Shown here in pieces: positions 22,860 to 53,291 of a DNA stretch of 64,000 nucleotides. The stretch comes from a virus. How positions within the stretch are numbered: the first letter of the stretch is position 1; every line of letters begins with the position of its first letter. The stretch is from the IMG/VR virus record IMGVR_UViG_3300044628_000090; one strand, written 5' to 3'. The notes below the pieces were generated by a model. The model saw nothing but the letters and a program-made list of their open reading frames with translations. It had not been told where the DNA came from and ran no database searches. The position numbers and the translations under genes are program-made.

Positions 22860-25800
22860 TCAAGGAACATCTAACGTAAGACAAGAATTTAATCTTGGCA
22901 GAGTTGGATTAGACATGGACTCTTCTGTAAATCAAATACAGAAGGGTAAGCTTTCTTATGCTCTAAACGCAGCATTAGAAAACTTTGACGCTAATTCTGT
23001 AAGCTATCAGAATGAGCCAAGTAATGAAGCTTGCTTAGAGTTTCCTGAAGGCTTTCAGCTTATTGGAACTCATTTCATACAAGAGAAAAACAAACACATA
23101 TTCTTCTTAGCTAATCCTCAAACAGGAGGAAGTGAGATAGGATATATGGATAACAATGATTGTGTATATCGCACACTTTGTACTCCTATTCCTGATACAG
23201 AGTTGATAGTTTGTGCTAACTCAGACTGTTTAAACTTTGATATAAACTATCCAATACACAAAGCTGTACATAAGATTACAAACTGTACCACTGAGATTTA
23301 TTGGACTGATGGATTGAATCCAAGAAGATATATTAACATTGAGCAAGTTCCATATGTTTTTTCATATGAAGGAGATAGCACTTGTGATCCAACTATTCTA
23401 GTAGTAGATGGACAAGGAGTTCTTGATTGTAATAAGTTAGATGTACAACCTAACTTTCAAATTCCTAATATAGAAGTTGCTGACATTGTTGTAGGAGGAG
23501 ATTTAAAAGCTGGTACTTATCAGTTTGCTATTCAGTATGGTAACTCTTCAGGAGATGCTTATACATCCTACTTCTCTATAACTAATCCTACATCTATTGC
23601 TAATACAGAAATAACAACTCCTGATTTTCAATATTCTGTAGGTGAATCTATTGTATTAAATATTACTAACTTAGATGTTACAGGATACTTCCAATACTTT
23701 AACTTAGCTGTTATAAAGACCATTAATAATGGTACCACTGTAGAATTAGTGGGAACATATAACATTGAAGAAAGGTCTACATCAATTACTTATACAGGAC
23801 AGAACACAACTCAGATTCCTTTGAGTCTTGCAGATGTTCTTGAAAAGTTTCCTTATTATGAAATTGCTCAAGATGTAACAAACGTACAAGATGTTATTGT
23901 TTGGGACAACTTAACTTCTATTGATAGAATCAACTATCAAAGCGTTGCTAATCAAATACAACTTCAATGGGAGACATACAAACTACCAGCTGGTAATACT
24001 TATGCTGATGGTTTTTATACTTCCAACTTAAGAGGATATTTAAGAGATGAGGTCTATGCATTTGAAATTGTATTCTTATTAACCAATGGTAAGCAAACAG
24101 ATGGTTTTCATATTCCTGGTAGATCACCAATTTTTAATGATTTAACTCCTATTTATGAAACTGGTCCTAATGCAACTCCTGACTTCATAGGTACTGCTAC
24201 TAATATTGAACCTGTTACACTTTATAAATATAGTCCTAATTGGAAAATATATAACACAGCTAGTGTATCTACAACGTATCCTGTTCCTACAGACAATACT
24301 AGGAAGATAGGAGATGCCTATCCTTATCAATCTGGAGACTTTGCATATTGGGAGTCTACTGAGGAGTATCCATGTAACGTAGACGTATGGGGAGACTTAG
24401 CTGGTAAACCAATTAGACACCATAAGTTTCCTGATGTTCTTGTAAGTCCTTACTTTGAGAGCCCCACCATTATATATACTGGAGGTCAAATAGAACCTGT
24501 AATGCAAGTTGCTAATGCTATCTATCCAATAGGTGTAAAGATAGATGTACAACAAGTGACTTTTGCTATTCAAAATTCTAGTTTAACAAATGAAGAGAAG
24601 GCATCTATTGCTGGATTTAAAATAGTAAGGGGTAATAGAAGCACAAACAAATCTATTATTGCTAAAGGTATTCTTAGAAATGTAGGTAAATACACTAGAG
24701 AAGATCCTAGTGATCCTAATGCTACATACTACTACTATCCTAACTATCCATATAATGACTTAAGTGAAGATCCATTCTTGCTTGAGAGAAACAATGCATA
24801 CAACTCTCAATGTGATACGTTCTCTATATCAGTGACAACTCCTGGTATCTTACAATACACAAACTGTTATACAGGAGAAGCAGATACACAAGCATTTGAT
24901 AGTAGCACCACTGAAATATGTTCTATTACACTTCCTGTTGTAAATAGTCCAGGAGCAGCTACGTTTACAAATATTACAACTACTACTTATACAATTACAA
25001 ATAATTCACCTGTTTTCTCTGTTACATTTAATTATACAGATCCAGTTACAGGAGCATTACAAACTATAATAATAGATGGTTTTGCATTAGGTATAAACAC
25101 TAAAACATTTAATTCTATCACTGTACCTGTGCGTACAGGAGGATCAACTAATTATAAAATAGTAGCTAGCAACACAAGTGAAAACTTAAATTGTTATCCT
25201 AATAAATTAGATGGATTTAATAATCCTGAGTCTGCTTACAGACAAGTATTTAATTCTCCAGAAACATCTTTTGGACAACCTACACTAGGTAATGTTCTTA
25301 AGTTAGAGAGTGTATTATTTGGTGGAGGAAGAGCTCATTTTGTTGAAGTGCAGAAACATGCTATGTATAAGCTTATCACTGAACAAACACAAGTTGATGC
25401 TTTGAACTCTAGTAAGAGAATAGCTGATCTTGGAGGATTTAGTGCTACAGCATTCTTCACAGCATATCAGACTTACTTACAGATTTATATTAATGGTATT
25501 AGTAGACAAAACTTTGCATATTCATTTAACTCTATATCTAGTTATGACTATAGTGCAGATGTTCCTAATAATCAAAAAATTAAACAAAGACAACTTGATC
25601 TAGCTCAATACGTATTCCCAGGTGTGCAGAACGTAGGTGATAATTATGATCTTAATAACTGGAATAGAGAGTCTTCAGTTTATGTTAAAACTATTGATGT
25701 TAGAAATGGAATACCTGTATCACCTTTACCATATCCTAATGATACTCCTTCTCTTGTTATAGCAGGTGTAAGTCAAATTAGTGACAATTCAAGATTTACA

Positions 25801-27870
25801 ATTTCAGAAGCAGAAAACTGTGCTAGTCCTGAAGCTCAGAGAGATATCAAAGTAGTATCTTACTATGGTTCTATAAAGGTTATTAATAATGGTCAATATG
25901 GACAAATCTATTCATATCAAACTATTGACACAGGATTCCAAAGAATATTCAGTGCAATATCTGCTAATGATCCTGAAGTGATATTTGGTGGTGATACATA
26001 TATTGGTAAGTTTGGATTTAAAACAAAGCTTCCTTTCTTTATTGACAATAGAGTGAATGCTCCAGATGATTCTGATATATACTATGATGAGATAGGTAAT
26101 GTAGCTTACCCACAATATTGGTATTCAGCAAGATCTATCTTGTCTGATTTTACTGTAGGCTCTACTGTAATGAAGAACATAATCTCTACCAAAGCACATT
26201 ATTTTGATTGTCCTAATGATGATATTGTTGACAATGCTACAACAACTACATCAACTACACCTGCTCCAGGAACAGTAACAGCTGGTTCTTTAAATTATGT
26301 ATATAGTGGTAAGATGTATTTGTTTGCTTATGGTATTCCTTACTATTATGTAGAGAGTTCTATTAATGTAGACTTACGTCAAGCATTCAATAACTTAGAA
26401 GGTGACTTCTATCCACATGTAAGTTCAGGTATTCCTGATACTTGGTTCCAAGAAAGTAGAGTTCCTATTGCTCTTGATAATACTTATTATTACAATACAA
26501 CCTTCTCTAAGCAGAATGTAGAGAACTTCTTCTCTCACTTGCCTGCAGATTGGATACAGCAATTGTGTTATAAAAACTTCCCATTCAGAGCAATATACTC
26601 TGATAGACAAGAAAGCTATTCTGATAATAGAATAAATAGCTGGTTGATATATCGTCCAATAAGCTTCTTTGATTTCCCTCAAAACTATGGTAATCTTATA
26701 TCTTTAGATGGTATTCAGAACAGAGCTACATTAGCTAGATTTGAGAACAAGACATTGTTATATGGTAACATGTTAACATTGAATACAAGTAATCCTCAAG
26801 CAGCTTATTTAGGTAATCCTTCATTATTCAGCAGTGTTGAACCACCTCCTATAGATTATGCTGAGACAGATCTTGGATATGTTGGTTGTCAAAATAAGAT
26901 GTTGCTTAAGATACCTCAAGGGCAGATAACTATTGATGCTAAGAGATGTCAAGTATTTTTAATTCAAGGAACACAAGCAACTGATATTTCAGGATTTGGT
27001 TCTGGTCTTAATAGATTCTTTACAAATCATTTAGCATTTGAAATACTAAGATACTTCCCAACAGTTAACACAGATAATCATTTTAAGAATATTGGTATTC
27101 ATGGTGTGTATGATAGTGTATTTGAAAGAGTAATAATTACTAAGTTAGACTATGTTCCACAACCAGGTAAAGAGGTATTTTATGATGAGGTGGTTAAACA
27201 GTTTTATGTTGACCAACCAGTAGCTGGTGATCTTGTAGTTAAGAAATATATCGAGGTGACAGATCTTGAATACTTCTGTAACAAATCATGGACTGTTTCA
27301 TTTAACTTCAATACAAAGAGTTGGGTGAGTTTTCACACATATCTTCCTAACTTCTATATAGGAGAAAACAGTTTCTTCTATTCTGGATTAAATGAAGGTT
27401 GTGATGTCACAGCAGTGGCAGTTGTACCAATACCTTCTCCAACCACAACAACTACAACAACAATAATTATATATTGTAACCTAACTGGTACAGCAGTAGT
27501 AACAGGATATCCTTGTCTTTTAGAAGGAACAGCTACAGAACAAACTACTACCACAACTACTACTACTACTCCTCCAAATTGTACTTTAACAGCAGGTAGT
27601 GTTCAAGTGAGTTATTTATTGTATTCTGAAGATAGATTTCATTTTAGCAACAGTATTCTTGGAACATGTATTGCTGTAGCAAGTCCTGCTTACTATGAAC
27701 CAGGAGCATTACTTTTTGATCCTGTAGTAAAAATATTCCAAGATCCACAAGGTTTAGTTCCTTTTCCATATACTTATGTAACTGACACACTATTTTCACC
27801 TCCTACAGCTATATATAACTATAATAGCACCACAGGAGTTGTAGGATCATATGTAAGTTCATGTTTATAA
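22786..27870 (+). CDS. giant virion protein (1694 aa; tail/baseplate or ejected-cargo candidate)
   Basis: A long uninterrupted ORF with consistent codon usage and poly-Thr linkers (TTTTSTTPAPG, TTTTTTTTII, TTTTTTTTTTPP). An internal ATG at ~22838 is an alternative start. Confidence 0.5.
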   Translation: MTYNALDNMNYQIEAQDMAEDGIDNQGTSNVRQEFNLGRVGLDMDSSVNQIQKGKLSYALNAALENFDANSVSYQNEPSNEACLEFPEGFQLIGTHFIQEKNKHIFFLANPQTGGSEIGYMDNNDCVYRTLCTPIPDTELIVCANSDCLNFDINYPIHKAVHKITNCTTEIYWTDGLNPRRYINIEQVPYVFSYEGDSTCDPTILVVDGQGVLDCNKLDVQPNFQIPNIEVADIVVGGDLKAGTYQFAIQYGNSSGDAYTSYFSITNPTSIANTEITTPDFQYSVGESIVLNITNLDVTGYFQYFNLAVIKTINNGTTVELVGTYNIEERSTSITYTGQNTTQIPLSLADVLEKFPYYEIAQDVTNVQDVIVWDNLTSIDRINYQSVANQIQLQWETYKLPAGNTYADGFYTSNLRGYLRDEVYAFEIVFLLTNGKQTDGFHIPGRSPIFNDLTPIYETGPNATPDFIGTATNIEPVTLYKYSPNWKIYNTASVSTTYPVPTDNTRKIGDAYPYQSGDFAYWESTEEYPCNVDVWGDLAGKPIRHHKFPDVLVSPYFESPTIIYTGGQIEPVMQVANAIYPIGVKIDVQQVTFAIQNSSLTNEEKASIAGFKIVRGNRSTNKSIIAKGILRNVGKYTREDPSDPNATYYYYPNYPYNDLSEDPFLLERNNAYNSQCDTFSISVTTPGILQYTNCYTGEADTQAFDSSTTEICSITLPVVNSPGAATFTNITTTTYTITNNSPVFSVTFNYTDPVTGALQTIIIDGFALGINTKTFNSITVPVRTGGSTNYKIVASNTSENLNCYPNKLDGFNNPESAYRQVFNSPETSFGQPTLGNVLKLESVLFGGGRAHFVEVQKHAMYKLITEQTQVDALNSSKRIADLGGFSATAFFTAYQTYLQIYINGISRQNFAYSFNSISSYDYSADVPNNQKIKQRQLDLAQYVFPGVQNVGDNYDLNNWNRESSVYVKTIDVRNGIPVSPLPYPNDTPSLVIAGVSQISDNSRFTISEAENCASPEAQRDIKVVSYYGSIKVINNGQYGQIYSYQTIDTGFQRIFSAISANDPEVIFGGDTYIGKFGFKTKLPFFIDNRVNAPDDSDIYYDEIGNVAYPQYWYSARSILSDFTVGSTVMKNIISTKAHYFDCPNDDIVDNATTTTSTTPAPGTVTAGSLNYVYSGKMYLFAYGIPYYYVESSINVDLRQAFNNLEGDFYPHVSSGIPDTWFQESRVPIALDNTYYYNTTFSKQNVENFFSHLPADWIQQLCYKNFPFRAIYSDRQESYSDNRINSWLIYRPISFFDFPQNYGNLISLDGIQNRATLARFENKTLLYGNMLTLNTSNPQAAYLGNPSLFSSVEPPPIDYAETDLGYVGCQNKMLLKIPQGQITIDAKRCQVFLIQGTQATDISGFGSGLNRFFTNHLAFEILRYFPTVNTDNHFKNIGIHGVYDSVFERVIITKLDYVPQPGKEVFYDEVVKQFYVDQPVAGDLVVKKYIEVTDLEYFCNKSWTVSFNFNTKSWVSFHTYLPNFYIGENSFFYSGLNEGCDVTAVAVVPIPSPTTTTTTTIIIYCNLTGTAVVTGYPCLLEGTATEQTTTTTTTTTPPNCTLTAGSVQVSYLLYSEDRFHFSNSILGTCIAVASPAYYEPGALLFDPVVKIFQDPQGLVPFPYTYVTDTLFSPPTAIYNYNSTTGVVGSYVSSCL

Positions 27871-34397: not shown

Positions 34398-37175
34398 ATG
34401 GCATCGTTTACAGATCAAATACAAACATTTAACCCTTACGTCTCCCAGGCTCCTTTGATAGAAGCTATGGTCGCTGTTGGCACTCAAAAGCAACAACAGT
34501 ATGACCAAGGTGTGCAAAAGATTCAAGGGTATATAGATAACATTGCTGGTATGGATGTTGTCAATGACGCTGACAAAAAGTATTTACAGTCTAAGTTAAA
34601 TGACTTAGGTAGTCGTTTAAAGACTGTTGCAGCTGGTGATTTCTCTAATCAACAACTAGTTAACTCTGTAGGTGGTATGGCTACTCAAATTGTTAAAGAT
34701 CCTACAGTTCAGAATGCTGTATACTCTACAGCTAATTATAGAAAAGAATTAGCTAGATTACAGAAAGATATAGAAGAAGGAAAGTCTAGTCCAGCTAATG
34801 TTGAGTTTTTTAACAAAAGAGCTGACAGTTGGTTGTCTTCTGACAAAGCTGGTCAAAAGTTTTCATCAAGTTATATTCCTTACTTTGATGTACAAAAGTT
34901 TGCTAAAGAAACATTCGATGCTATAAAGCCTGATGGTTTTACAATTGATCAAGTGTATGAAACAGATACTCAGGGTAATATCAAACTTGATAAAGCAGGT
35001 AGACCTATTTATTCTCCAGTAATGAAAAGAATGGAGCAAGAAGGTAGAACTCCACAAAAAGTAAAAGAAACATTAGAACAAATCTTTTCTGATGCTAGAG
35101 TGAGTCAGCAATTAGATATCTCAGGTCAATATGAATATAGAGGTTACTCTCCAGAGATGTTGACTCAAAAAATCAACTTACAGAAAGAAAGTCTTATCTC
35201 TAAATATGATGAGCAGATAAATGAACTTGCTTTACAAAAAGGCACAGGTAAAGATGTCCAAGCTCAGATAGATCAACTTGAGTTAAGAAAGAACAATATT
35301 AAAAGTCAGTATGATGATATAATGACTGTAGCTCAAGATAATCCAGATTCTATCAGATCTCTTTTATATAAGGATGATGTTAAAAGTAGATTCACCACAA
35401 TGTTTGGTGAGATGAAAACTAAAGAAGCATTAATGGATAACCCAGGTTGGAATGCTAACTTCAAGTTACAACAAGAAGCTAATGAACAATCTAGATGGGC
35501 TCAAGGAATGGCATGGGATGTTAAGAAGTTTAATATAGGATTATCAGAGGCAGAGAAAAATCGTAACTTACGAATCCTTCTTGCTCAAATGAAAGGAACC
35601 AAAGGCAAAGGTATTGATACTAATGGTGATGGTATTCCTGATGATTTTGGAGCAGGTGCAGGTTTTGAACAAGGAGATATGCCAGGTAGTGTTGATCTTA
35701 TTGCTAGGTTTGAATCAGAGTTAACTAATGCTGCAGATGACTTTATTAATGCTTCTGATAACTTTATTTGGAATGCAGGTTTTTCTAAAGTGCCTGGAAA
35801 CCAAGCTAAGCTTGATTCTATGATGAAGCAAGGAATTGGTAAAGACCAAGCTATTAAAAACTTACTTGATAATACAGCATTTTTAAATAAAGAAACTCCA
35901 GAAAACTTTAGAGCTAGATGGGGAGATAAATCTACAGTGGCTTATAACAAAATGACTGCTGAACAGAGGAAAAAAAATCCTGATCTTCAAGATGCTTACT
36001 ATTTATATGGTGAATCAAAAAGAAACTATGATGTATTAAATACTGTTAAAACTAAAGTTAACGAGGTTACAGGAAATATACTAGGAAAGGATGTTGATAA
36101 GACAAAAGTAATTGAAGGAATTAAACCTGTTACAGGTTTCATTAAAGGTAAACCTGTTCAACTTACTCCAGAAGACTTTTATGATATGGCAATTTATCTA
36201 AAAGGTAATGCGTCTTCTGTTGGATTTTTGAATGATAAAACTGCAAGAGAACAAGCTAAGAAAGCTGAAGCTAGATTAGACTTAAGAGGTAAATCAGAAT
36301 TATTACCTATATTATTAGAACAACAAGGTAAAGGTAAAGGAGGACTTATAACAGGTGCTATAAGAGGAGTTAAAGCATTGGTAGGTTTAGCAAAAGCAGG
36401 AGGACCTGTTCCAAACATGGGTGCAATGGATCTTGTTGATTTATCTCAAGTTAATAAGATATATGATAAGTTGGGAGATGATTATGCAGGAGCTTTAAAA
36501 ACAAAAGCAGATGTTGTAAAACAATACTATAACATTCAGCCAAACTTAAAAGCTGGTTTATTAACTGGAGATGCTGGTGATGATAAAGTTATGGTAGATA
36601 AGATAACAAGATATGCTGCTAATTACAATACAGCAGGAAAGAATCTTTCTCCTGACTTCAAAGCATTTGCTTCTAATGTTGGTGGTAAAGATGTTACTTA
36701 TGAAGCACAAGTTATTACAGGTCCTGGAAGCAAACCAGTAGTAGAGATTGTAGCATATGGTGGAGAAGATAATAAGAGATTAGGTGGTATGATTGTAGCT
36801 GATGATGAATCTACTAGACTTGGTATTAATCCTGCAACATTATATGAACCAAAGCAAGTAACTAATCTTAGAACTTATATCCAAGCAAATGGTGACCAAA
36901 CTTCTAAGGGAGACCCTAAAGAAAAACAAACTTACATACAAGGAGATAGTTATCTTAAGACTCCTAATTTTATAAACTTAAAAGGAAGTGGCTACGATGC
37001 AGCTGCTAACATTACATATAAAAATGGTTTATATTATGCAAACATATTTGGAAGCGATGGCAGAAGGTCAAACATAATGACCATGCCTGGTAGTCCAAAC
37101 TTGCAAGCTGTTCTTCAGAACTTAACAAATAACGTAAACGCACAGTGGATTGAAGCACTTTTAACTGAAAGATAA
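34398..37175 (+). CDS. hypothetical large virion protein (925 aa)
   Basis: A long ORF with coiled-coil content, coupled to the giant ORF by a TAATG overlap. No motif. Confidence 0.4.
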   Translation: MASFTDQIQTFNPYVSQAPLIEAMVAVGTQKQQQYDQGVQKIQGYIDNIAGMDVVNDADKKYLQSKLNDLGSRLKTVAAGDFSNQQLVNSVGGMATQIVKDPTVQNAVYSTANYRKELARLQKDIEEGKSSPANVEFFNKRADSWLSSDKAGQKFSSSYIPYFDVQKFAKETFDAIKPDGFTIDQVYETDTQGNIKLDKAGRPIYSPVMKRMEQEGRTPQKVKETLEQIFSDARVSQQLDISGQYEYRGYSPEMLTQKINLQKESLISKYDEQINELALQKGTGKDVQAQIDQLELRKNNIKSQYDDIMTVAQDNPDSIRSLLYKDDVKSRFTTMFGEMKTKEALMDNPGWNANFKLQQEANEQSRWAQGMAWDVKKFNIGLSEAEKNRNLRILLAQMKGTKGKGIDTNGDGIPDDFGAGAGFEQGDMPGSVDLIARFESELTNAADDFINASDNFIWNAGFSKVPGNQAKLDSMMKQGIGKDQAIKNLLDNTAFLNKETPENFRARWGDKSTVAYNKMTAEQRKKNPDLQDAYYLYGESKRNYDVLNTVKTKVNEVTGNILGKDVDKTKVIEGIKPVTGFIKGKPVQLTPEDFYDMAIYLKGNASSVGFLNDKTAREQAKKAEARLDLRGKSELLPILLEQQGKGKGGLITGAIRGVKALVGLAKAGGPVPNMGAMDLVDLSQVNKIYDKLGDDYAGALKTKADVVKQYYNIQPNLKAGLLTGDAGDDKVMVDKITRYAANYNTAGKNLSPDFKAFASNVGGKDVTYEAQVITGPGSKPVVEIVAYGGEDNKRLGGMIVADDESTRLGINPATLYEPKQVTNLRTYIQANGDQTSKGDPKEKQTYIQGDSYLKTPNFINLKGSGYDAAANITYKNGLYYANIFGSDGRRSNIMTMPGSPNLQAVLQNLTNNVNAQWIEALLTER

Positions 37176-40100
37176 TGCCAGATAAAATAGTAAACTTAGG
37201 AGGTACAATTGAAGGTTTTCCAAATACACCTGTAGTAAATACAGATATTAGACAATCTAAAGGACCTACTCCTTCTATAACTGATTTGTATACACAAGGA
37301 CTAAGCACTGTTAAACCAGCAGGTGTAAAGGCTGTTCCTACGTCCAATATATATATTGGAGAAAGATATGCTGCTGTTAGACCTGGTGAAGACCTAGAAG
37401 AGATGTATGGTCAGCAACAATCTAGTGCAGATAAATGGAAGAATGGTGCTATTAAGTTTTTTGGTACTGCAACTGCTTCTCTTGTTTCTGGTACAGCTGG
37501 TCTTGTTTATGGTGTGGGTTCTGCTATAAAAGATGGAAAGTTTTCTAGTCTTTATAATAATGATTTGACTAGAAAGATGGATGAAACATTTATCCAAGGT
37601 TTAGACAATACTGCTCCTAACTATTACACTACAAAAGAAAGAGACTCTGACTGGTGGTCTCCTGATAATATCTGGACTGCTAACTTCTTCTCAGATAAGC
37701 TGATGAAGAACTTAGGTTACACAGTGGGTGCTTTAGCAGGTGGTGTGGGTTGGGCTAAATTATTAAAAACATTAGGTACAACAAATGCGTTGGTTAGAGG
37801 TGGTTATGGTTTAGAAGCTGTAACTGCTGCAGAAAATGCAATGCAAGCTGTTCCTAAAGTAAATCAATTTGCTGCATTTGATGGTGCTGTTAATTCTGTA
37901 GCACAGAAGTATTTAAAAACACCTTTAGCTAAGATACTAAGTGATCCTGAAAGAATTGTTGCTTCTACAATGGGTACATTTGGTGAAGCTTCATTAGAGG
38001 CTTTACAGAATGCAAATGAGTTTAGAAAAGGAGCAATAGAACAATATGTAAGAAAGTATGGTAAAAATCCTACAGGTGCTGACTTAGAAGAGATTGATGA
38101 CTATGTAAGTAGTGTTGGTAACTTCACTTGGGGAATGAATACTTTATTATTAACTGGCACAAACTATATTCAACTTCCAAAGATATTAGGTTCTTCTAAT
38201 AGAGCTGATAAGATGTTACTTAATCAGATTGAAAAGAAAGGACAAGGTGCTGCATTCACAGAAGTGATGCCAGCTACTAAGTTTGGAAAGGTGTTACAAA
38301 GATCAAAGGATGTTTCAAAACTATTCTTTGCTCCATCAGAAGCATTTGAAGAAGGTGCACAGTTTGCAATCCAAGTAGGTACAAATGATTATTTTAACAG
38401 AGCCTTTAGAAATAGACAAGGAACTCAAGACTTCTTGACTGCTCTAAATGGTACTATGGGTAATGTACTTGGTAAAGGGGTAGAAGAAACTATATCTACT
38501 AAAGAAGGTTTAGAGAGTATATTGATTGGTGGTCTTTCTGGTGGTATTCAAAGAGCTAGAAATACAATTCAACAACAAGGTATATTAGGTACAGGAGGAT
38601 TACGAAGAGCTAATACAGATATTGCTCTAGGTGCTTTGAATCAAAGTAATATTGAAACTGTACTTGGAGACTATGCTAGATACATAGGTATTGGTATTGG
38701 TTCTCAAAAGGCTAGACAACAAGCTATTGTAAATAATGATAAGGTTTCTGAGAAAGACTTTGAAAATGATTTCACTCTATCTTACATTATGCCAAGAGTT
38801 AAGTATGGTAAGGTGGATTCTATTGGAGAAGAACTTTCATACTACTCTCAACAATCATCTACAGAAGAAGGCTTCCAACAATTGGTTGCAAATGGCATTG
38901 TAAATGCTGGTGAAAGTAGAGAAGATTTCTTAGCTAGAATTACAAACGTTGCAAGAATTACTAAGAACATTAATGATCTTTATGATTCATTAGGTAGAAA
39001 ATATAGTAATCAACCTGGCTATACATCAGAGATCTTAGATAAGATGGTGTACTCTTTAGCTAAGGTGGGTAGTTATGATGTACGTATCCCTGAAGTAAAC
39101 AATCTATTGTTCATAGCAGGTGTAAATACACAAGACATATTACAAAGTGTTATCAAGGAAAACAAACCTAACAAAGAAGCTGTAGAAGAATCATTGAAAC
39201 AAATCAATGAGATGGATGTAACTTCTGAGACTAAGGATGATCTTAAGACAGCATTGTCTGATATCATTGAGTTAGGCTTACGTAGGAAAATGTTTATTGA
39301 TGAGTATGATGCTATCAAGGCTAATCCTACAGAATTCCAATTCAAGCCTGACGTAGAGTTTGGTGCCACAGAAGAAGTGCCTGTAACAGTTACAGAAGAG
39401 GAAGAACAAAAAGTTACTCCAGAAGGACAGATTGAATTGTTTCCTACAAAGAAAGAAAGAAAACTAGAGGTTGGTAGAGAATACTTCTTGAAACAACCTG
39501 TTAGAAAAGAAGACAATACACTTACCCTAGCACCTAAGATTAAGGTGTTATCTCAAACATTAGGTGGTGAGTTTGAAGTGCAGTTGCCTAGAGGTAATGT
39601 GAGCTTCTTAACTCCTGAAGATTTTGCAAAATTAGACTTAGCAGATGAAGGTGCAGCGTCACCAGAGCTTAGAGATATAATGGAAGCTGCTATTGATAAT
39701 GTATTATCTACTTCTGAGTTTGCAGGTGTAACACTTCCTGAGGGAGAAGATAAGTTAGCATCTCTTAACTCTTTAAACAACGCACAATTAGTTGATGCTG
39801 TTGAGACTGAGTTCAATGCACTTTCAGAAACATATCTGAAAGAACAAGCTGATCTTCAAGCTAATAGAGAGAAGATGAACGCTGTAGCAGATAAGATTAA
39901 ATCTGCACAAACTGATATTGCTGCTACATCTGGAGTTGTCCCAACAGGCAACAATGATGAAGACTTAATGAACACTCCTAGTTCTAAGGAGACTCCTAAG
40001 AAAGATGCAGGTATATTGTTTACCTCTTCTACGTCTGCCTCTGTTGACTGGGAGAAAGTATTAGCTCCTAATGTTACACGTTATAATGAGTTTATAAACA

Positions 40101-43100
40101 AGGTAAAGACCTTTAAGAATAATAAGAACATCAAAGCTATTGTTGTCACTCAGAAGCAAGAAGCTGCATTAGGACTAGCTGGTCTTGGTGAACTATCTTT
40201 TAGAGAAGGTAACTTTGATACAGATTTGTTAAATGATCCTATTGAAGGATTTATTGGTCTTGTGTTTGTAGAAGATAAGAAAGGAGAAAGACAATTTATA
40301 GATAAGAATGGTAATCCTATTGGTAAGGTGGGGGAGCAAGTAGAATTAAACAAGGTGGTATTTACAAGCATGCCTGCTGCTAAACTAACTAATAGTAAAG
40401 GTGAACCTAGAAATAGAGCTGGTCAAGAAGAACAAGCTGCATTAGAGTTAGCAGCATATGAAGTATATCGTAAAGACTTAAGAGAGGCTGCTGAAGAAGA
40501 GTATCCAATATTTAACTTTACTCCATCTAAAGGTATTGCTATTACAGATGATGTTAAGAAATCTGTAGGTGGTGTTCTTGTTCCTGAGAATCAGATTGCT
40601 ACACAACAAGTATTGACTGTTGTGACTAAAGGAGGTGTTGACCATGTAGATGGTATAACTTATAACTTTCCTAATGGCAGACCTGTATTCCAAAGCCAAG
40701 ATACATTAGAATATCTAAACAATTCTAACTTAACTAAAGACCAAGCAAGTGCAGTTTATAATGTACTCAAAGCTATGTCTAATGAAGCTAAGCAACAAAT
40801 TGTTGCTAAGAAGCCAGTTAAGTTTAATGAGATATATAAGAGATTTTTACAAGGTGTTACATTCTATACCAACGCAGATGCTGTAGCAAAAGGTGTGGGT
40901 GAAGGAAGTAGCAATCGTATTTATATAGAAGGATCTGTATTGCATATTGGAAGCAACACATATGACTTTGCTAATATAGAAAAGCAAGAGATCCCTATTG
41001 TAAGTGATTTACAAGGAGTGTTTCATAATGTAAATAGCTTCACAGTTAACTTAGGACTAGGTGAACCATTTGTAGAATTCTATGTAGACGCTGCTGGTAA
41101 GTTAGCACAAAGAAGCTGGAAGAACTATCAGTCTTATTTGTTAGCAAGTAAGAACCCTGATGGATCTGGACGTATAGCTCCTTTGACAACCACTGTGGCT
41201 AAACCTACAGAGGCTGTTCCTTATACACACAAACAAAAGTATATCATTCTAAATGGCTTAGAACTTCCAAAACAATCTGTAGCTAAACCTGCAGAACCTG
41301 GAGTGGAGACATATAAGTCTAATGTAGGTGATGTTACATATACAGTTACTACAGACAGTAAAGGTGACTTCACTGTAGATTTAGTTGGTGAGAATCCAAA
41401 CATCCAAAAGATTGTAGACAACCCACAATTAATGGCTGTTGCTACACAACAGTTGAAAGACTTAGGTAAGTTTGATGAGTTAGATCAACCTATTCAAACT
41501 GCTGCTAAGTTTGCTGCTGAGGTTATTACAGCTAAGTTATTAAGTGAAAGAAAAGCTGCAGCTCCTGTTGTTGAAGAAGAAGTCATTACTCCTGACCAAC
41601 CTAAGAACATCAACATTGGTGATGCTGAATATAGAAGAATTGGTAGAACAGATGTAGATAGAATAAGTGATGCTGAGCTTGCATTGTTTAAAGAATGGCA
41701 CGCTAAGAATGCTAAAACTATTCCTTACGAAGTGTTAGAGAATGTTATTAAGATTAATAACACAGAGAAAGCATGGGGAGCATTTGAGAATGGTGTAGCT
41801 AAGTTCTTTAAGGGAGCTCAGAGAGGTACAGAATATCATGAGATATTTGAAGGTATCTGGAAAGGATTCTTATCTCAAGGAGAACAACAATCTATCCTTG
41901 ATGAGTTCAAAGCTCAAACAGGTTCTTTCTTAGATAGAGAGTCTGGTAGAAGAATAGATTATGCAAACGCTACAGATCAACAAGCTAAGGAAAGAATAGC
42001 TGATGACTTTGCTGAGTTCAGACTTGGTAAGTTACCTGCTAGAAACCTTACAGAAAAGATCAAGAACTTCTTCAAAGCTATTGTGGATTTCTTCAAATCA
42101 TTTGTAAATAAACCTACATTGAAAGAAGACTTATTCAAAGCTATAGATACAGGTGAGTTTGCAGATAGAACACTTCCTGAAACTGTTAAGAATCAAGCTG
42201 CTGAGTATAGAAAGATTGAAGGTATAAATGCTAAACAAACTAATGAGTTTGTACAAGACATTACAGCTAGAGTGTTTGGTGAGATATTTGCTAACAACAG
42301 CTCTTTGTTTAATATAGAAGATATTACAGCTTTTGATTTATTTAATAGAATCAAGGAGAAATACATACAGAACAATGTTATAGGTGACAATCCTGTAACA
42401 CAAATCACTGAGAATCAATACGCTAAGTTAGTTGAAAGAACTAAAGAGTTCTTAAAGACATACAGAATTGAGTTTGATGAAGATAGTAGAGTTACAGTTA
42501 ATGATGATGGAGCTAATAGAAAAGACTATGCAGCTGAAGCGTTCACTGTTAATTTCAAGAAGTCTTCTCCATATGCTGTTAAGTTATTGATTGGTACTTT
42601 GATTAAGACAAAAGGTTTGAATCAAGAAGCAAGTGCAGTACTTAAACGTCCTGAAGCTGATACATCTAGTATTGGTGGACTTAAGCTATTGCCTTTCAAT
42701 CAAGCGTTCACAACTTTGATGAATAGACTTTCTAACACAAGAAGTATCCCTGAGTTTGTATCTAAGCTACATGAATTAGCTAAACAAAACAGTGACTACG
42801 TTAGATTGTTTGAGCGTTTAGGTGGTAACCTAACCACTGGTCAGATTGACTTTGCTAGCTACCAACCACATGACATTAGATTGTTTACTAACTTCTATCA
42901 GGTGTTTACAAAACAAAGACCTGATGCGTTGGCTATGTTCATGGATGGTAATAACGTATACACTGCTCCTGCTAACCAAGCTTCTGCTATTGCTGGGATA
43001 AGATCTGAGTGGATAGAGAACATGAAGACTAAGGCTGAACAGCCTGGTTCTATCATTAGCTATAATGGAAGAGTATACAAAGTTAAGAAAGAAGATTATA

Positions 43101-46100
43101 ACATTAAATTTCCTGAAGACAAGGTAGCGTTCTTAGGAGAGTTGGGTATAGAATTCCCAATGGCTGTATACAATAAGGTTAAGAACAAGAAAGCTTTCTC
43201 TGACGCTGTAAGTGGTATTAAGTTAGGTCTTAGTAAGACAGATGAGTTGATGAGCTTTGGTGGTAGAAAGCTTGGTATTCGTACACAGTTAAATGAGTTA
43301 GCTAAGTTATATACAGTAGCTGCTTCTCCTGCAGAAGACAGCACATACTTTGGTGTAGATGGTAATAGAATACAATCTGACACAGATGCAAACTATCCTT
43401 CTTTATTAGAATACGTATTTAACTCTTCTGATACGTTAGAAGAATTGAAGCAAAACATGCCTCAATTAAATGATGTATTCTCTACAAACAGCCAAGTCTT
43501 AAAGTTAGGTGGTAAGTTCTTTGATGAAGAAGGTAATAGAATTGCTGAAATCAAGTTACAATACATACAAGGAGTTAAGGATATTGTAAACAATGATGGT
43601 CAAACAACATCTTCTCTAAGCATAGGTGATAGGTACATTACAGAAATGAACCAAAACTTAGATGGTAGATATTATGTATTAATCCCTGCAGATAGTTCTA
43701 GAGAGTGGATGATGGACTTAGGTAATACAATTGCCTACACAGATGTAGCTGCTGGAAATGTAGATACATTGTTCACAGATGTATTCTTAGGCTATTTAAA
43801 AGATGAGATTAAGTTAGCTCAAGACAGCACTAACAGAACTAAGCTTAGAAATGTAGGAGATAAAGCTACAGAACTTAGATTCTTAAAGGATATGCTTCCT
43901 GCTAACTTGTTAAAGGAGATAAATACTCTTATTGAGAAGAGAGCATCAGAAGCAGAGATTAATGATTTCATTTCTAAGAATCGTGAGGATAAAGACGAAC
44001 AACCTGGTTTAGATTCAAGTATTTTAGAGTCATTAGATAACACTGTAACTAAGACTAGACAAAACTTAGTAGAAACACAAAAGGTTATTGCTAGTAAAGA
44101 AGCAGGTAGTTTCTTAATGCCTGAAATAGAGAACAGATTTACTGAAAAAGCTGGCTTAAATAAGTTTGCCTTGACAGATCAAGACGTTAATAATGTTATC
44201 AAGTTTGCTAATGCTAACTACATGATTAACAACGTGGAGTTCCATAAGATTTTGTTTGGTGATCCATATCAGTTTGAGATTAAGGGCAATCAATTAGATG
44301 AGACTAAGCGTATTAAGTCTTTCTTATCTCCAAGAAGAATCACTGTAAACTCTGATGAGTTTAACAACTTATTCAATAAACAATATAATACTGTAGCTGG
44401 TGTTGAGTTAACTCCTAATGACTATGGATATCATGAGCATAAAAACTTTGCTAAGACATTCACAGCTGCTGACGTAAATGTAACAGATAGTTTCTACCCT
44501 AAATCAAATGAAGCAGATGCTGCTTCTTGGATTATGGATGGTGCGTTTAAAGAAGTGAAGTTAAAGAATGGTCAATGGTCTGATGAGGCTGAAGCATGGC
44601 ATCAGTGGCAAATGGCTTACACAAGACAGAACGTTCCTGGCTACACTTACAGAAGTGAAGCATTGCGTAAACATGATGAAGCGTTAGTAGAACAACCTGA
44701 ACCTTTATATGTTACAGATGTATTGAAACCTATTGTATCTGGTAACAAGTTTGGTAAAGCAAACTTTGATCTAGTACTAGATAAGTTTTCTCAAATGCCT
44801 TTATACTATAAAGCTATAAAAGGAACTAACCTTGGCAAATTCTATGAGAAGATGTTCAAGGAAGGATATGACTATGCTGTAGTAGTTTCTGGTAGAAAGG
44901 TGGGAGCTGAGAAGTTACATAAATTATACAATGAAGATGGTAGCTTTAATGAAGAACCATTTAATAATACAATCAATGTTGGCTGGGATAGTTATGGTAT
45001 CCAAGTAGAAAATAGCTATGACAAAGACAGCAAACAAACTCTTGGTTCTCAGTTAACTAAGTTGTCTACTGTTGACTTATATAATAATGGTAAGGCTAAT
45101 AATGAAGCTGCTAGAAAGGCAGTAGAAAAGAATACAGAAGTATTAAAAGAGATGTTACTTAATGGATATCAAGAGTTATTAAGAAAGCTTGGTATTGAAG
45201 ACCTAGGTGACAATTTTGTTGTTAAAGATAAAACTGTTGTAGCTGATACATTGAGACAAGAGATGCTTAAGAGAGAAATGTCTGAGAATGGTATTGATAG
45301 TATATCTATTGATCCAGAAACTGGAGAGTTTTATATGCCATTCGAAGCATCTACAAACTACATTCAAATCAAGAACATCTTGTATTCAATTGTAAATAAG
45401 TCTATTGTATCTCCTAAGGTGAATGGTTTCCCTGCTGTACAGGTTCCTGTAACAATGTGGGAGAAAGCTGGTGAGTCTAGAGGAGAAGGATTAAAAAAGT
45501 CTGCTCTTAAGTTCTACACTAAAGAAGATCCATACATGGAAGTATATCTTCCTGCATGGTTCAAGAAACAATTACCTAAAGGTAAGACTGATGAAGAACT
45601 GATTAAGTTATTAGAAGGATCAGAGATATTAAAGGGTATAGGATTTCGTATTCCAACACAGGGTTTAAACTCTGCAGAGGTATTTAGAATCAAAGGTTTC
45701 CTACCTGAGTTTATGGGTAAGACAATTGTGGTTCCTTCTGAGATCACCACAAAAGCTGGATCTGACTTTGACATAGATAAATTAAATCTATACTTAAAGA
45801 ACATATATGTAACTCCTTCTGGAGAGATTAAGTCTGTACCATTCTTTGGATATGGAGATCAAGCTAAAGAGGCTATCAAGAAGTTTATTCTTGAAGAAGA
45901 CATCAAAGCAATGTTAGATATCAATAGTGAAATCTCTGGAAGCAGAGTTGATGACTATGGTACATTAGCAGATAAGCTATACAAGCAATCGCTTGAGAAT
46001 GAATACTTTAGATCTATCGAAGCATTGTTAACTCTAGAAGAGAACTTTGATAGATTGACTTCTCCTAATACAGACAAGACTCTTAAAGATATTGCTAATG

Positions 46101-48169
46101 ATTTAGATATATTAAGAGGGGAGAATGAAGGTGGTATCAAGAACAGATTGTTAGATAGAAACTACATGACTAATCAAAGACATGCGTTCTTGACTGGTAA
46201 GAGATGGATTGGTATTGCTGCTGTAAACATTACAGGTAATTCCCTTGCACAGAAGACAGACGTGTTTGTAGAGAATCCACAAACAGAAATGGCTTTACAA
46301 CATAATAAGTTTACTGATGGTGGCTTTGAGCATATATCACTTTCTGGTATGTTAGATCAAGCTGGTAAATATATCTCTGATAAGTTATCAATGTATGCGA
46401 ATGCTTTCGTAGATATTGCTAATGACCCATACATCATGAAGATTATTTACAGCAATAGAGTTGTAGGTACATTTGTGTTGTTAGAGCGTGCAGGTGTTCC
46501 TATGAAGACAGTGACTATGTTTATGAATCAGCCTATTGTAAGAGAACATATCAAAAACTTAGATGCTAATGGTGCTCCTAGATATGCAATAAGCAATGCT
46601 GATTATATTAAACAGGCTAAGATAAACTTCCCTGCAAATCCAAAAGCTATCCAAGCAGCTACAGTTGCTGAAGGTAACTTTGAAGATAACATATCTTCTT
46701 ATGCTAAGAATACAATGACTGAAGCTCAGAATGCTGAACAACACAAGATACTGAATGAGTTCTTATCTTATGTTACCCTAGCTGATGAGAACTTCAACTT
46801 CACACAGGCTATCAATTATGATACCACTACGTTTAGAAATGCTGATGACTTCTATAGAAAAGAAATGATGACTGATCGTGCACAAACTAAAGGTGCTATT
46901 AGTTCTCCAGAGAAGGTTTTAGAAAGCTCATTCTTAGGTACAGAAAAAACTGTGTTAGATCAATCTAATACAGCGTTGGGTGCTATCCTTAAGTTTAACC
47001 AATCTGAATTCAGAGGAGTGCTTGAGAATACTATTCAACAATATGCTGAGAAGTTTTACATGGCTAAGGATACATTTAATAGAGTGGCTGAAAAAGCTAC
47101 AGCAAGCCTACTTGATTATATTATTCAAACAGGTAGAAAGAACGCATTGAATATCAGTGAGTTATCTTTTGGTCCAGAGTCTGTAGCAGTGAAGTTAGAA
47201 GAAGCTAAACAAAAATATCCTAATGTACAAATACTACAAGACTTAGTTGTAGTGTCTGCAGAAAGACCAAACAGTCCTAAGACTATTAAGCTTAAAGCTA
47301 ATGTAAAAGAAGCTTATGACGAGAACATGTATATTGGTATGATGAGAGAGTTAAGAGACAATCCAGATACTAACCAACTATATAAAGATCTTATCAAAGT
47401 AGCTATCATACAAGGTACATATCAATCTGCTGTGTCTATCAAGAATATTATTCCTATTGAAGACTATTCTGCAGAGGTAAAGAATATTGTAAACACAGCT
47501 GTGGTAGATACAAACATTCAAGAGTTTGCTAACAACAATTGGTTCCAAAGAAACAATTGGAAGAATCCAGATGTCACTCCTGCTATTGCTCCTTATATTG
47601 ATGAAGAGTCTGTAACAGAGATTGGTGAATTCAAGAATCAAATAGTTTCTCAATACAAGTTTTCAGGATTTGTAGAAATCCCAGAGATTGGAATTGGTGA
47701 AAATGATAAACTTGTACTATCTGTAGGAGAAAAATCTAAAGCTGCTGGCTATGATATGATAACTATCCCACGCATTATTACTACTAAGTATGGTGAGATG
47801 ATTGACTTCATGACTGGCAAGACTATTACAAGAGCAGGCTATGCAGAATTAAAAACTAAGGGTGATCCTATTATTGGACAAATGTTTGGTTATCAGAAAG
47901 TTAAGTTTGTAAGTGGTGAAGCATTAAGAACATATAAAGGAAAGTTTGTATTTAAGATGGTAAACTTATATGGAGATGGACAATTCACTTCTGAATATTA
48001 TAAATTCAACAAACCTTCTGAGCTAGATAATAATACAGGCAAGGTGAACAATGAAATCCCTAATTCAGAAATCATAAAATACTTTACAGGTATTGTTGAA
48101 AATGAATTAAATTCGCAACCTGAAACAGAAACAGATCTAAGTACTAAAGACTTTAAATGTAAATTCTAA
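37175..48169 (+). CDS. giant 3664-aa protein with beta-prime-like RNA polymerase catalytic segment (virion RNAP candidate)
   Basis: Residues ~2824-2868, 'FRIPTQGLNSAEVFRIKGFLPEFMGKTIVVPSEITTKAGSDFDIDK', align motif-for-motif with the multisubunit RNAP beta-prime active site 'NRAPTLHRLGIQAFEP...HPLVCAAYNADFDGDQM' (RxPT ... F ... G ... P ... aDFDxD). The ORF is uninterrupted with coherent codon usage. Confidence 0.5.
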   Translation: MPDKIVNLGGTIEGFPNTPVVNTDIRQSKGPTPSITDLYTQGLSTVKPAGVKAVPTSNIYIGERYAAVRPGEDLEEMYGQQQSSADKWKNGAIKFFGTATASLVSGTAGLVYGVGSAIKDGKFSSLYNNDLTRKMDETFIQGLDNTAPNYYTTKERDSDWWSPDNIWTANFFSDKLMKNLGYTVGALAGGVGWAKLLKTLGTTNALVRGGYGLEAVTAAENAMQAVPKVNQFAAFDGAVNSVAQKYLKTPLAKILSDPERIVASTMGTFGEASLEALQNANEFRKGAIEQYVRKYGKNPTGADLEEIDDYVSSVGNFTWGMNTLLLTGTNYIQLPKILGSSNRADKMLLNQIEKKGQGAAFTEVMPATKFGKVLQRSKDVSKLFFAPSEAFEEGAQFAIQVGTNDYFNRAFRNRQGTQDFLTALNGTMGNVLGKGVEETISTKEGLESILIGGLSGGIQRARNTIQQQGILGTGGLRRANTDIALGALNQSNIETVLGDYARYIGIGIGSQKARQQAIVNNDKVSEKDFENDFTLSYIMPRVKYGKVDSIGEELSYYSQQSSTEEGFQQLVANGIVNAGESREDFLARITNVARITKNINDLYDSLGRKYSNQPGYTSEILDKMVYSLAKVGSYDVRIPEVNNLLFIAGVNTQDILQSVIKENKPNKEAVEESLKQINEMDVTSETKDDLKTALSDIIELGLRRKMFIDEYDAIKANPTEFQFKPDVEFGATEEVPVTVTEEEEQKVTPEGQIELFPTKKERKLEVGREYFLKQPVRKEDNTLTLAPKIKVLSQTLGGEFEVQLPRGNVSFLTPEDFAKLDLADEGAASPELRDIMEAAIDNVLSTSEFAGVTLPEGEDKLASLNSLNNAQLVDAVETEFNALSETYLKEQADLQANREKMNAVADKIKSAQTDIAATSGVVPTGNNDEDLMNTPSSKETPKKDAGILFTSSTSASVDWEKVLAPNVTRYNEFINKVKTFKNNKNIKAIVVTQKQEAALGLAGLGELSFREGNFDTDLLNDPIEGFIGLVFVEDKKGERQFIDKNGNPIGKVGEQVELNKVVFTSMPAAKLTNSKGEPRNRAGQEEQAALELAAYEVYRKDLREAAEEEYPIFNFTPSKGIAITDDVKKSVGGVLVPENQIATQQVLTVVTKGGVDHVDGITYNFPNGRPVFQSQDTLEYLNNSNLTKDQASAVYNVLKAMSNEAKQQIVAKKPVKFNEIYKRFLQGVTFYTNADAVAKGVGEGSSNRIYIEGSVLHIGSNTYDFANIEKQEIPIVSDLQGVFHNVNSFTVNLGLGEPFVEFYVDAAGKLAQRSWKNYQSYLLASKNPDGSGRIAPLTTTVAKPTEAVPYTHKQKYIILNGLELPKQSVAKPAEPGVETYKSNVGDVTYTVTTDSKGDFTVDLVGENPNIQKIVDNPQLMAVATQQLKDLGKFDELDQPIQTAAKFAAEVITAKLLSERKAAAPVVEEEVITPDQPKNINIGDAEYRRIGRTDVDRISDAELALFKEWHAKNAKTIPYEVLENVIKINNTEKAWGAFENGVAKFFKGAQRGTEYHEIFEGIWKGFLSQGEQQSILDEFKAQTGSFLDRESGRRIDYANATDQQAKERIADDFAEFRLGKLPARNLTEKIKNFFKAIVDFFKSFVNKPTLKEDLFKAIDTGEFADRTLPETVKNQAAEYRKIEGINAKQTNEFVQDITARVFGEIFANNSSLFNIEDITAFDLFNRIKEKYIQNNVIGDNPVTQITENQYAKLVERTKEFLKTYRIEFDEDSRVTVNDDGANRKDYAAEAFTVNFKKSSPYAVKLLIGTLIKTKGLNQEASAVLKRPEADTSSIGGLKLLPFNQAFTTLMNRLSNTRSIPEFVSKLHELAKQNSDYVRLFERLGGNLTTGQIDFASYQPHDIRLFTNFYQVFTKQRPDALAMFMDGNNVYTAPANQASAIAGIRSEWIENMKTKAEQPGSIISYNGRVYKVKKEDYNIKFPEDKVAFLGELGIEFPMAVYNKVKNKKAFSDAVSGIKLGLSKTDELMSFGGRKLGIRTQLNELAKLYTVAASPAEDSTYFGVDGNRIQSDTDANYPSLLEYVFNSSDTLEELKQNMPQLNDVFSTNSQVLKLGGKFFDEEGNRIAEIKLQYIQGVKDIVNNDGQTTSSLSIGDRYITEMNQNLDGRYYVLIPADSSREWMMDLGNTIAYTDVAAGNVDTLFTDVFLGYLKDEIKLAQDSTNRTKLRNVGDKATELRFLKDMLPANLLKEINTLIEKRASEAEINDFISKNREDKDEQPGLDSSILESLDNTVTKTRQNLVETQKVIASKEAGSFLMPEIENRFTEKAGLNKFALTDQDVNNVIKFANANYMINNVEFHKILFGDPYQFEIKGNQLDETKRIKSFLSPRRITVNSDEFNNLFNKQYNTVAGVELTPNDYGYHEHKNFAKTFTAADVNVTDSFYPKSNEADAASWIMDGAFKEVKLKNGQWSDEAEAWHQWQMAYTRQNVPGYTYRSEALRKHDEALVEQPEPLYVTDVLKPIVSGNKFGKANFDLVLDKFSQMPLYYKAIKGTNLGKFYEKMFKEGYDYAVVVSGRKVGAEKLHKLYNEDGSFNEEPFNNTINVGWDSYGIQVENSYDKDSKQTLGSQLTKLSTVDLYNNGKANNEAARKAVEKNTEVLKEMLLNGYQELLRKLGIEDLGDNFVVKDKTVVADTLRQEMLKREMSENGIDSISIDPETGEFYMPFEASTNYIQIKNILYSIVNKSIVSPKVNGFPAVQVPVTMWEKAGESRGEGLKKSALKFYTKEDPYMEVYLPAWFKKQLPKGKTDEELIKLLEGSEILKGIGFRIPTQGLNSAEVFRIKGFLPEFMGKTIVVPSEITTKAGSDFDIDKLNLYLKNIYVTPSGEIKSVPFFGYGDQAKEAIKKFILEEDIKAMLDINSEISGSRVDDYGTLADKLYKQSLENEYFRSIEALLTLEENFDRLTSPNTDKTLKDIANDLDILRGENEGGIKNRLLDRNYMTNQRHAFLTGKRWIGIAAVNITGNSLAQKTDVFVENPQTEMALQHNKFTDGGFEHISLSGMLDQAGKYISDKLSMYANAFVDIANDPYIMKIIYSNRVVGTFVLLERAGVPMKTVTMFMNQPIVREHIKNLDANGAPRYAISNADYIKQAKINFPANPKAIQAATVAEGNFEDNISSYAKNTMTEAQNAEQHKILNEFLSYVTLADENFNFTQAINYDTTTFRNADDFYRKEMMTDRAQTKGAISSPEKVLESSFLGTEKTVLDQSNTALGAILKFNQSEFRGVLENTIQQYAEKFYMAKDTFNRVAEKATASLLDYIIQTGRKNALNISELSFGPESVAVKLEEAKQKYPNVQILQDLVVVSAERPNSPKTIKLKANVKEAYDENMYIGMMRELRDNPDTNQLYKDLIKVAIIQGTYQSAVSIKNIIPIEDYSAEVKNIVNTAVVDTNIQEFANNNWFQRNNWKNPDVTPAIAPYIDEESVTEIGEFKNQIVSQYKFSGFVEIPEIGIGENDKLVLSVGEKSKAAGYDMITIPRIITTKYGEMIDFMTGKTITRAGYAELKTKGDPIIGQMFGYQKVKFVSGEALRTYKGKFVFKMVNLYGDGQFTSEYYKFNKPSELDNNTGKVNNEIPNSEIIKYFTGIVENELNSQPETETDLSTKDFKCKF

Positions 48170-53178: not shown

Positions 53179-53262
53179 ACAATATAGTTATTGCTATATT
53201 ATGTAGGAATAATTTTCCTAACTCATTGAAAATAAATTAAATTCATTACTTTTGCTAATAAG

Positions 53263-53291
53263 GGTGCACATGCTATATCTAGTTGTGCACC
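53263..53291 (+). terminator. hairpin terminator after giant-gene block
   Basis: GGTGCACA-(13 nt)-TGTGCACC is a perfect 8-bp stem, followed by TTATTGTAT (a weak U-tract). A 170-nt AT-rich gap precedes the next gene. Confidence 0.5.

Follow-up and report, generated by a model that had tools for sequence, protein, structure and literature searches.

The closest characterised relative of the protein described here is gp66 of Cellulophaga phage phi14:2, a virion-packaged DNA-dependent RNA polymerase (vRNAP; RNAP, RNA polymerase) that transcribes early genes (bioRxiv 10.1101/2020.03.07.982082). Its motif 1361-DFDID-1365 is conserved in crAss-like orthologues, and any single Asp-to-Ala exchange in this motif abolishes RNA synthesis (bioRxiv 10.1101/2020.03.07.982082). 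The same study assigned the inter-barrel connector of gp66 to residues 1095-1238, the bridge helix to 1529-1559 and the trigger loop to 1598-1636. It also found all three products of g065, g066 and g067 in the virion and reported that some phages have them as one fused polyprotein. Giant RNAP genes encoding up to ~6000 amino acids (aa) are a hallmark of the group (PMC10136315). In PhiCrAss001, gp47, gp49 and gp50 were detected in the virion as capsid cargo and were proposed to be ejected partly unfolded (PMC10172136). Here we describe a giant open reading frame (ORF) in a 64,000-nucleotide stretch of the virus record IMGVR_UViG_3300044628_000090, called the window below. With a probability of roughly 0.88, this ORF encodes a virion-packaged two-barrel DNA-dependent RNAP that is homologous to gp66 and fused at its N-terminus to a g067-like cargo protein.

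The ORF list and translation showed that the giant ORF (37175-48169, plus strand) encodes 3664 aa from an ATG start in a single unbroken frame. TAATG stop/start overlaps join it to both neighbouring ORFs. Since the frame stays open over 3664 codons at a local G+C content of ~35%, it is no chance ORF. The first-pass annotation of the window had placed a peptide resembling the active site of the bacterial beta-prime subunit at about residues 2824-2868 of this ORF, with 39 residues from its R to the first Asp. The peptide, FRIPTQGLNSAEVFRIKGFLPEFMGKTIVVPSEITTKAGSDFDIDKLNLYL, is present letter for letter in the translation. F2824 starts at nucleotide (nt) 45644 and R2825 at nt 45647, and positions 45647-45778 span R2825 to D2868. 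Peptide and coordinates were thus exact, and our measurement of the spacing gave the same figure. The DFDID sequence at aa 2864-2868 is the sole D-x-D-x-D within the giant protein.

A phmmer search against all PDB sequences gave a single match, the gp66 chain 6vr4_A, with an E-value of 4.8e-25. Residues 2331-2880 of the query were aligned to gp66 863-1391, and residues 2934-3125 to gp66 1484-1671. The connector, catalytic motif, bridge helix and trigger loop of gp66 all fell inside these aligned stretches. In the first of them, IGFRIPTQGLNSAEVFRIKGFLPEFMGKTIVVPSEITTKAGSDFDIDKL of the giant ORF stood opposite IGYRIPNQGQSSNDPLQIVGILPEAMGDTIVAYTEIPTKTGSDFDIDKM, in agreement with the active-site segment suggested earlier. 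BLASTP with gp66 gave an E-value of ~1e-36 over 862 aa, with aa 2333-3124 aligned to gp66 851-1656, and tblastn matched 134 phage records, nearly all of them crAss-like. In an alignment of 23 sequences, with identities down to 34%, the R, I, P and Q of the motif block and the whole of S-D-F-D-I-D-K were invariant. The match to the gp66-family motif is not a chance match because of the phmmer E-value together with this invariance. The Ile of DFDID had been singled out as a notable replacement of Gly. Since S-D-F-D-I-D-K is invariant in the 23 closer homologues, the Ile is a family signature and not a local substitution, and gp66 carries the identical DFDID.

Across six divergent homologues including gp66, 66 positions were invariant, and these clustered in both barrels, the bridge helix and the trigger loop. 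In the catalytic barrel they comprised R2825-I-P-x-Q2829, S2833, L2843, P2844, G2848, V2852, K2860 and G2862-S-D-x-D-I-D-K2869. The second position of the DFDID motif is a Tyr in phage cr108_1 and is thus variable in this set of six. L2517, K2518, G2523 and K2537 were invariant in the beta-like barrel, as were K3009, G3013, I3014 and A3016 in the bridge helix and I3067, V3079, D3080, P3085 and L3103 in the trigger loop.

An AlphaFold2 (AF2) model of aa 2300-3200 was built from the 23-sequence alignment, with a mean predicted local distance difference test (pLDDT) score of 75.9 and a predicted template modelling score (pTM) of 0.73. Strands bracketed the DFDID segment, the connector was helical (H345-446 of the fragment), and one 33-residue helix at fragment residues 696-728 corresponded to the bridge-helix region. 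Foldseek against the PDB placed 6vr4_A first (E = 1e-27, template modelling score (TM) 0.61) and QDE-1 second (E = 9.5e-4). The lower matches were RNAP subunits of the non-virion enzymes of PhiKZ and AR9 and beta'/Rpb1-type subunits, with plant RDR2 among the next-best. From these fold matches, both double-psi beta-barrels (DPBBs) lie in the giant ORF. The barrel around DFDID is the one that the first-pass annotation had led one to expect, and the second, beta-like barrel was found within the same ORF at ~aa 2515-2605. Two DPBBs, a connector, a bridge helix and a trigger loop in one polypeptide are the combination by which the gp66 family is recognised.

The fold search also bears on another kind of giant virion enzyme. 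Coliphage N4 gp50 is a functional analogue, a polymerase of ~3500 aa that is packaged in the virion and injected to transcribe early genes. The similar size and lifestyle, a podovirus with a virion RNAP (PMC13434306, PMC10136315), would also fit a T7-like single-subunit polymerase embedded in the giant protein. However, the fold of gp50 is unrelated and no similarity between it and the giant ORF was found. T7-like and N4 polymerases were absent from the PDB matches by sequence and by fold, which were headed by 6VR4, QDE-1 and largest subunits of multisubunit RNAPs, and no Pfam RNA_pol match and hence no T7-like domain was found in the giant ORF. The PDB searches thus refute an N4-type polymerase, for which we see practically no chance.

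The appearance of QDE-1 and plant RDR2 among the next-best structural matches raises a different possibility, that the protein belongs to the fold family and is no transcriptase, being either a QDE-1-like RNA-dependent polymerase or a catalytically dead structural or ejection cargo. In the gp66 crystal, moreover, the DFDID conformation was incompatible with Mg2+ binding (bioRxiv 10.1101/2020.03.07.982082), and in the Zeta group the RNAP genes of crAss phages show heavy disruption (PMC7886860). However, the three Asp and their surrounding residues are invariant over the 23 homologues, and the bridge-helix and trigger-loop positions common to gp66 are conserved as well, which therefore indicates purifying selection on catalysis. 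QDE-1 and the eukaryotic RDRs are likewise single-chain two-barrel RNAPs, but they have no detectable sequence similarity to the giant ORF. Neurospora QDE-1, with a Gly in its DxDGD motif, is an RNA-interference enzyme and no component of a virion, whereas gp66 is DNA-dependent and serves early transcription. We therefore regard a non-transcribing or RNA-dependent protein as very improbable and retain the gp66-like DNA-dependent RNAP.

Relatives for comparison by BLASTP were taken from metagenomes and GenBank (phi14:2 as L001 and cr108_1, NC_055878.1, as L002), and homologous proteins were searched with aa 2300-3200 and aa 1-1200 of the giant ORF. Residues 1458-3466 were aligned to residues 87-2239 of the stand-alone RNAP ORF of L007 (18804-end), and residues 1684-3637 to residues 61-2116 of the 2180-aa RNAP of L005 (15877-22419). 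This end-to-end alignment with stand-alone RNAP genes therefore indicates that aa 1458-3664 form a complete vRNAP. Judged from the alignments, it would include the ~850-residue N-terminal region, which is likewise of no known fold in gp66. The first-pass annotation had supposed that about 2800 residues without a known function were fused upstream of the motif. A fusion is indeed present, but it adds only ~1400 N-terminal residues.

The remaining N-terminal part, aa 1-1397, was aligned to a separate protein of 1839-1958 aa that lies directly upstream of the RNAP in L005/L006 and in L007. Its profile matched phi14:2 g067 with an hhalign probability of 98.5% (E = 3.5e-15) and the N-terminus of cr108_1 gp054 with 96.7%. 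Its tblastn matches in crAss-like and Cellulophaga phages were annotated as 'putative RNA-polymerase subunit' or 'structural protein', the former in PhiCrAss001-like phages and IAS virus. By way of g067, and from annotation and gene position, we infer that this part is the counterpart of PhiCrAss001 gp47. Its conserved domain at ~aa 64-720 contains invariant Gly-rich and acidic positions, and E75, Q82, N90, K94, G109, G113, E271, E275, E392, E393 and Q396 were among the invariant residues of the alignment. An AF2 model of aa 1-830 was all-alpha and helical up to residue 721 (pLDDT 65.7, pTM 0.43). Foldseek found no significant PDB fold match to this model, and no function could be assigned to the N-terminal half from its fold because the best E-value was 0.36.

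The upstream protein of L007 is homologous to the giant ORF as far as aa 1397, and the L007 RNAP from aa 1458 onwards. The junction of 61 residues thus takes the place of ~217 residues at the ends of these two separate proteins. A scan of 34000-53500 for sigma-70 promoters and terminators showed no enrichment (68 found and 71 expected), nor did it yield an assignable internal promoter at the fusion junction.

How common the fused form is was examined by an exhaustive phmmer search with aa 2300-3200 against 1.84 billion cluster representatives, which gave 2821 proteins with E<=1e-3, of which 738 reached E<=1e-30. Among the best 150 representatives of the 2821, ~130 were 3100-5650 aa long and had the core near residues 2300-3200. 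Six full sequences were retrieved. The same layout was seen in P0083 (3706 aa), P0149 (3693 aa) and P0172 (3823 aa), while in P0181 (5544 aa) a g065-like protein is also joined to give a triple fusion. In the other two, P0129 (5650 aa) and P0103 (5479 aa), extra C-terminal domains with Walker-A and 'IHKSQGG/IHKSQGS'-type superfamily 1 (SF1, RecD-like) helicase motifs were noticed by eye. L003 has the fused architecture as one unbroken 4025-aa ORF (1424-13501), and L004 (3363-14707) has it as 2189 + 1617 aa. Within the RNAP part of L004 the frames overlap at 9854-9932, which points to a frameshift or a sequencing error there. The database gene calls record the 4025-aa ORF of L003 as 1166 aa and the L004 gene as 2189 + 1568 aa. 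Such truncated or split calls therefore understate the true gene size of the homologues. Small RNAP genes in the relatives, as suggested by database lengths of ~1.2-1.6 kaa, were ruled out by the miscalled L003 and the lengths in the exhaustive search. The fusion is thus not unusual; it is common in metagenomes and has already been reported as polyproteins.

These relatives also decide whether the single ORF could be a sequencing or assembly artefact, in which a stop/start was lost between separate g067-like and gp66-like genes. The two parts are indeed separate with an overlapping stop/start in L005/L006 (15877) and in phi14:2 g067/g066 (9451 of L001), and the frame of L004 is broken, albeit within its RNAP part. 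However, fused ORFs with the same relative core position dominate the best 150 representatives and come from independent metagenomes, L003 is unbroken, and cr108_1 gp054 carries both parts. In addition, the 61 junction residues in place of ~217 are not as expected from a single-base error. On these grounds the artefact was rejected, and its likelihood is very slight indeed, leaving a genuine fusion of g067-like cargo and vRNAP.

Comparison with the described systems shows where this architecture agrees with them and where it differs. In phi14:2, gp66 is a separate 2180-aa protein and the gene order is g067 (1797 aa), g066 (2180 aa) and g065 (1421 aa), whereas here a fused g067-like protein precedes the polymerase in one chain of 3664 aa, followed by a 1669-aa protein. 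PhiCrAss001, like the window, has three large RNAP-associated proteins beside muzzle and cargo genes (gp47, gp49 and gp50), but as three separate proteins, whereas two of the three are fused here. The same layout is found in cr108_1 (Pipoluvirus rarus, Steigviridae), in which gp054 and gp053 have a g067-like N-terminus followed by the RNAP. BLASTP aligned gp054 to aa 1279-2864 and gp053 to aa 2865-3441 of the giant ORF at ~23% identity. The two add up to a similar length (2967 + 798 aa), and the homologous third protein, gp052, comes next. However, the cr108_1 gene is cut inside the catalytic motif (GSD/YDID) by a group I intron, whereas the gene in the window is unbroken. The intron lies at NC_055878.1 17492-17810 (Rfam RF00028, 80 bits, E = 1.4e-20). 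In that record gp054 ends with '...KAGSD', gp053 begins with 'LYDIDKMY', and both halves are labelled hypothetical. Thermus phage P23-45 gp96 is another virion two-barrel RNAP in a fusion, but its partner is the tail tape measure protein of a siphovirus, and its RNAP is at the N-terminal end as opposed to the C-terminal end in the window ORF. The features of the giant ORF and its surroundings are collected in Table 1.

Table 1. Coordinates of the giant ORF, its parts and other features in the window (residue pairs give giant ORF/gp66 numbering)
Feature	Coordinates	Strand	Basis or remark
Giant fusion ORF, g067/gp47-like cargo + gp66-like vRNAP	37175..48169	+	One frame; BLASTP against split and fused relatives
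N-terminal g067-like part, aa 1-1397	37175..41365	+	hhalign, BLASTP, tblastn
Best-conserved all-alpha domain, ~aa 64-720	37364..39334	+	Alignment, AF2 model
Fusion junction/linker, ~aa 1398-1457, then '...KAAAPVVEEEVITPDQPKN'	41366..41545	+	Homology ends/starts against L007
Full-length crAss-like vRNAP part, aa 1458-3664	41546..48166	+	BLASTP to L007, L005, gp66
Beta-like DPBB-A, ~aa 2515-2605, boundaries approximate	44717..44989	+	Conserved L-K (2517-2518), K2537, S-G-R-K-V-G (2572-2577)
Inter-barrel connector, ~aa 2606-2754	44990..45436	+	Aligned to gp66 1095-1238; Q2610/1100, K2748/1232, G2751/1235 invariant; model helical
Beta'-like catalytic DPBB-B, ~aa 2755-2885	45437..45829	+	HMMER to gp66 ~1240-1391; contains motif segment
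Predicted catalytic metal-binding DFDID, D2864/D2866/D2868	45764..45778	+	Identical to gp66 1361-1365
Bridge-helix equivalent, ~aa 2994-3027	46154..46255	+	gp66 1529-1559; K3009/1544, G3013/1548, I3014/1549, A3016/1551
Trigger-loop equivalent, ~aa 3066-3104	46370..46486	+	gp66 1598-1636; I3067/1599, V3079/1611, D3080/1612, P3085/1617, L3103/1635
TerL (phrog_6681)	1456-3498		
Portal (phrog_6547)	3498-6080		
Major capsid protein (MCP; phrog_11589)	8052-9605		
Crassvirus muzzle protein	22786..27870	+	Pfam PF25731 crAss_MUZ E=3.6e-31; phrog_37948 E=2.8e-95
Cargo-like ORFs	27882-37175		
RNAP block	37175-53178		
Candidate third 'RNAP-associated' cargo protein, 1669 aa	48169..53178	+	Positional counterpart of phi14:2 g065, cr108_1 gp052
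Collagen-like tail-fibre genes (among several such ORFs)	53353-57129, 57139-58452, 58442-59725, 60752-61966		

The gene context agrees with the assignment. On one side of the gene are the muzzle protein and smaller cargo-like ORFs, on the other the candidate g065 counterpart, all within a late/structural block of the crAss type. The vRNAP stands in a 'transcription block', with the g067-like part fused upstream and the gp052-like ORF directly downstream, and with muzzle, portal, MCP and TerL further upstream, an arrangement characteristic of the gp66 family. The presence of muzzle, portal, MCP and TerL genes together with a giant RNAP block is that of Crassvirales. The order matches the PhiCrAss001 layout of muzzle, cargo 1 and 2 and then three RNAP-associated cargo proteins (PMC10172136). 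Together with the homology to gp66, the predicted fold and the conserved residues, this context bore out the earlier suggestion of a crAss-like giant vRNAP.

The ORF at 48169-53178 matched cr108_1 gp052 by BLASTP (E = 4e-23 and 1e-11), and its C-terminal region matched phi14:2 g065 weakly by hhalign (67% probability, E = 5e-5). Position and the match to cr108_1 gp052 are therefore the main grounds for its orthology. Its profile had no hit in the PDB, and Pfam gave only weak PD-(D/E)XK and DUF7794 signals. A canonical-looking PD-(D/E)XK pattern, G494-T495-x-D497 ... D511-x-K513, was observed, and the support for nuclease families was weak (phrog_298 exonuclease, E = 2e-4; PF12705, E = 0.066). 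Together these sequence features suggest an ejected protein with a possible nuclease domain. An invariant E204-E205-x-x-H208 ('PEEAMHFA') is possibly the zincin-like site reported for gp65. In the cargo block, aa 246-292 of the 952-aa ORF at 31453-34311 weakly resembled a glycine zipper or transmembrane segment (PF13488, E = 0.0038, below threshold). This ORF could be the counterpart of PhiCrAss001 gp45, a proposed membrane-inserting cargo protein.

Beyond the RNAP block, the G+C content was 0.405-0.41 at 52001-60000 as opposed to 0.33-0.38 elsewhere in the window. The rise coincided with the three collagen-like genes at 53353-59725, the fourth being located a little past it. At 54912-56059 both strands carry long ORFs that overlap, probably as artefacts of the Gly-X-Y repeats. 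The three ORFs that follow the tail-fibre genes (61967-63947; 200-239 aa) lie on the minus strand and may start a divergently transcribed, possibly early, module. Neither tRNA genes nor Rfam families were found within the window.

The closest TerL among GenBank phages was that of the unclassified Leptolyngbya phage Lbo-JY46 (38% identity), followed by those of Cellulophaga phages phi17:2 and phi4:1 (32%). Lbo-JY46 (PP438436.1), a cyanobacterial phage, also encodes a muzzle homologue with 34% identity, a 1552-aa g067-like protein, and a protein of 2748 aa with a match to aa 204-303 of the ORF starting at 48169.

Several observations speak against identifying the giant ORF as a packaged gp66-like polymerase. 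The identity of the core to gp66 is only ~24%, and BLAST detected nothing in the N-terminal 850 residues of gp66 when compared with the giant ORF. The self-inhibiting, cleft-blocking domain of gp66 (196-233) was not located, BLASTP of the first 400 residues of gp66 against the ORF showing no significant similarity. Pfam-A and PHROGs scans of the whole giant ORF gave no hit, and the N-terminal half has no functional assignment from its predicted fold. At the level of the phage, a megablast search of the giant ORF against 50,697 phage records had no match, and by sequence the phage has no classified crassvirus near it. In Lbo-JY46 no RNAP part was detected, either with the core profile in its seven large cargo-block proteins or by tblastn over the 104 kb examined. 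Finally, the packaging, ejection, activity and template preference that we ascribe to the giant protein are argued from its homology. As to the scans of the giant ORF, DUF6165 (E = 0.017) and phrog_33535 (E = 0.005) were discarded as sub-threshold noise.

By analogy with phi14:2 and PhiCrAss001, the giant protein would be made late and packed into the cargo zone of the capsid. It would then be extruded partly unfolded via the portal and the tail, before or with the DNA, and would refold in the cytoplasm. There, D2864, D2866 and D2868 would hold Mg2+, and the early phage genes would be transcribed independently of the host RNAP. The fused chain may either act as one polypeptide or be cleaved near aa 1400-1460 into a g067-like piece and the polymerase. 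A bolder reading, which we consider doubtful, is that the fused chain is one uncut working molecule in which the g067-like all-alpha half physically couples ejection or translocation across the envelope to the polymerase. In the same reading, the lineage would fall outside all classified families of crassviruses, and the cultured phage nearest to it in TerL, which infects a cyanobacterium, apparently keeps g067- and g065-like genes without the polymerase. If this were true, the cargo proteins would have a transcription-independent role, and crAss-type vRNAPs might reach beyond Bacteroidota hosts.

The finding adds no new kind of enzyme or mechanism, the family, the DFDID motif, the virion packaging and the fused polyproteins all having been published. 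The giant gene is a divergent newcomer in a known, experimentally characterised family. With this identification, the largest ORF of the window is firmly assigned and the phage joins the crAss-like assemblage. In the environmental clade of the giant ORF, the fusion of g067-like cargo and vRNAP is the usual gene structure. The fused form is thus a natural construct with which to ask whether the RNAP-associated cargo acts together with the polymerase or is split from it by proteolysis.

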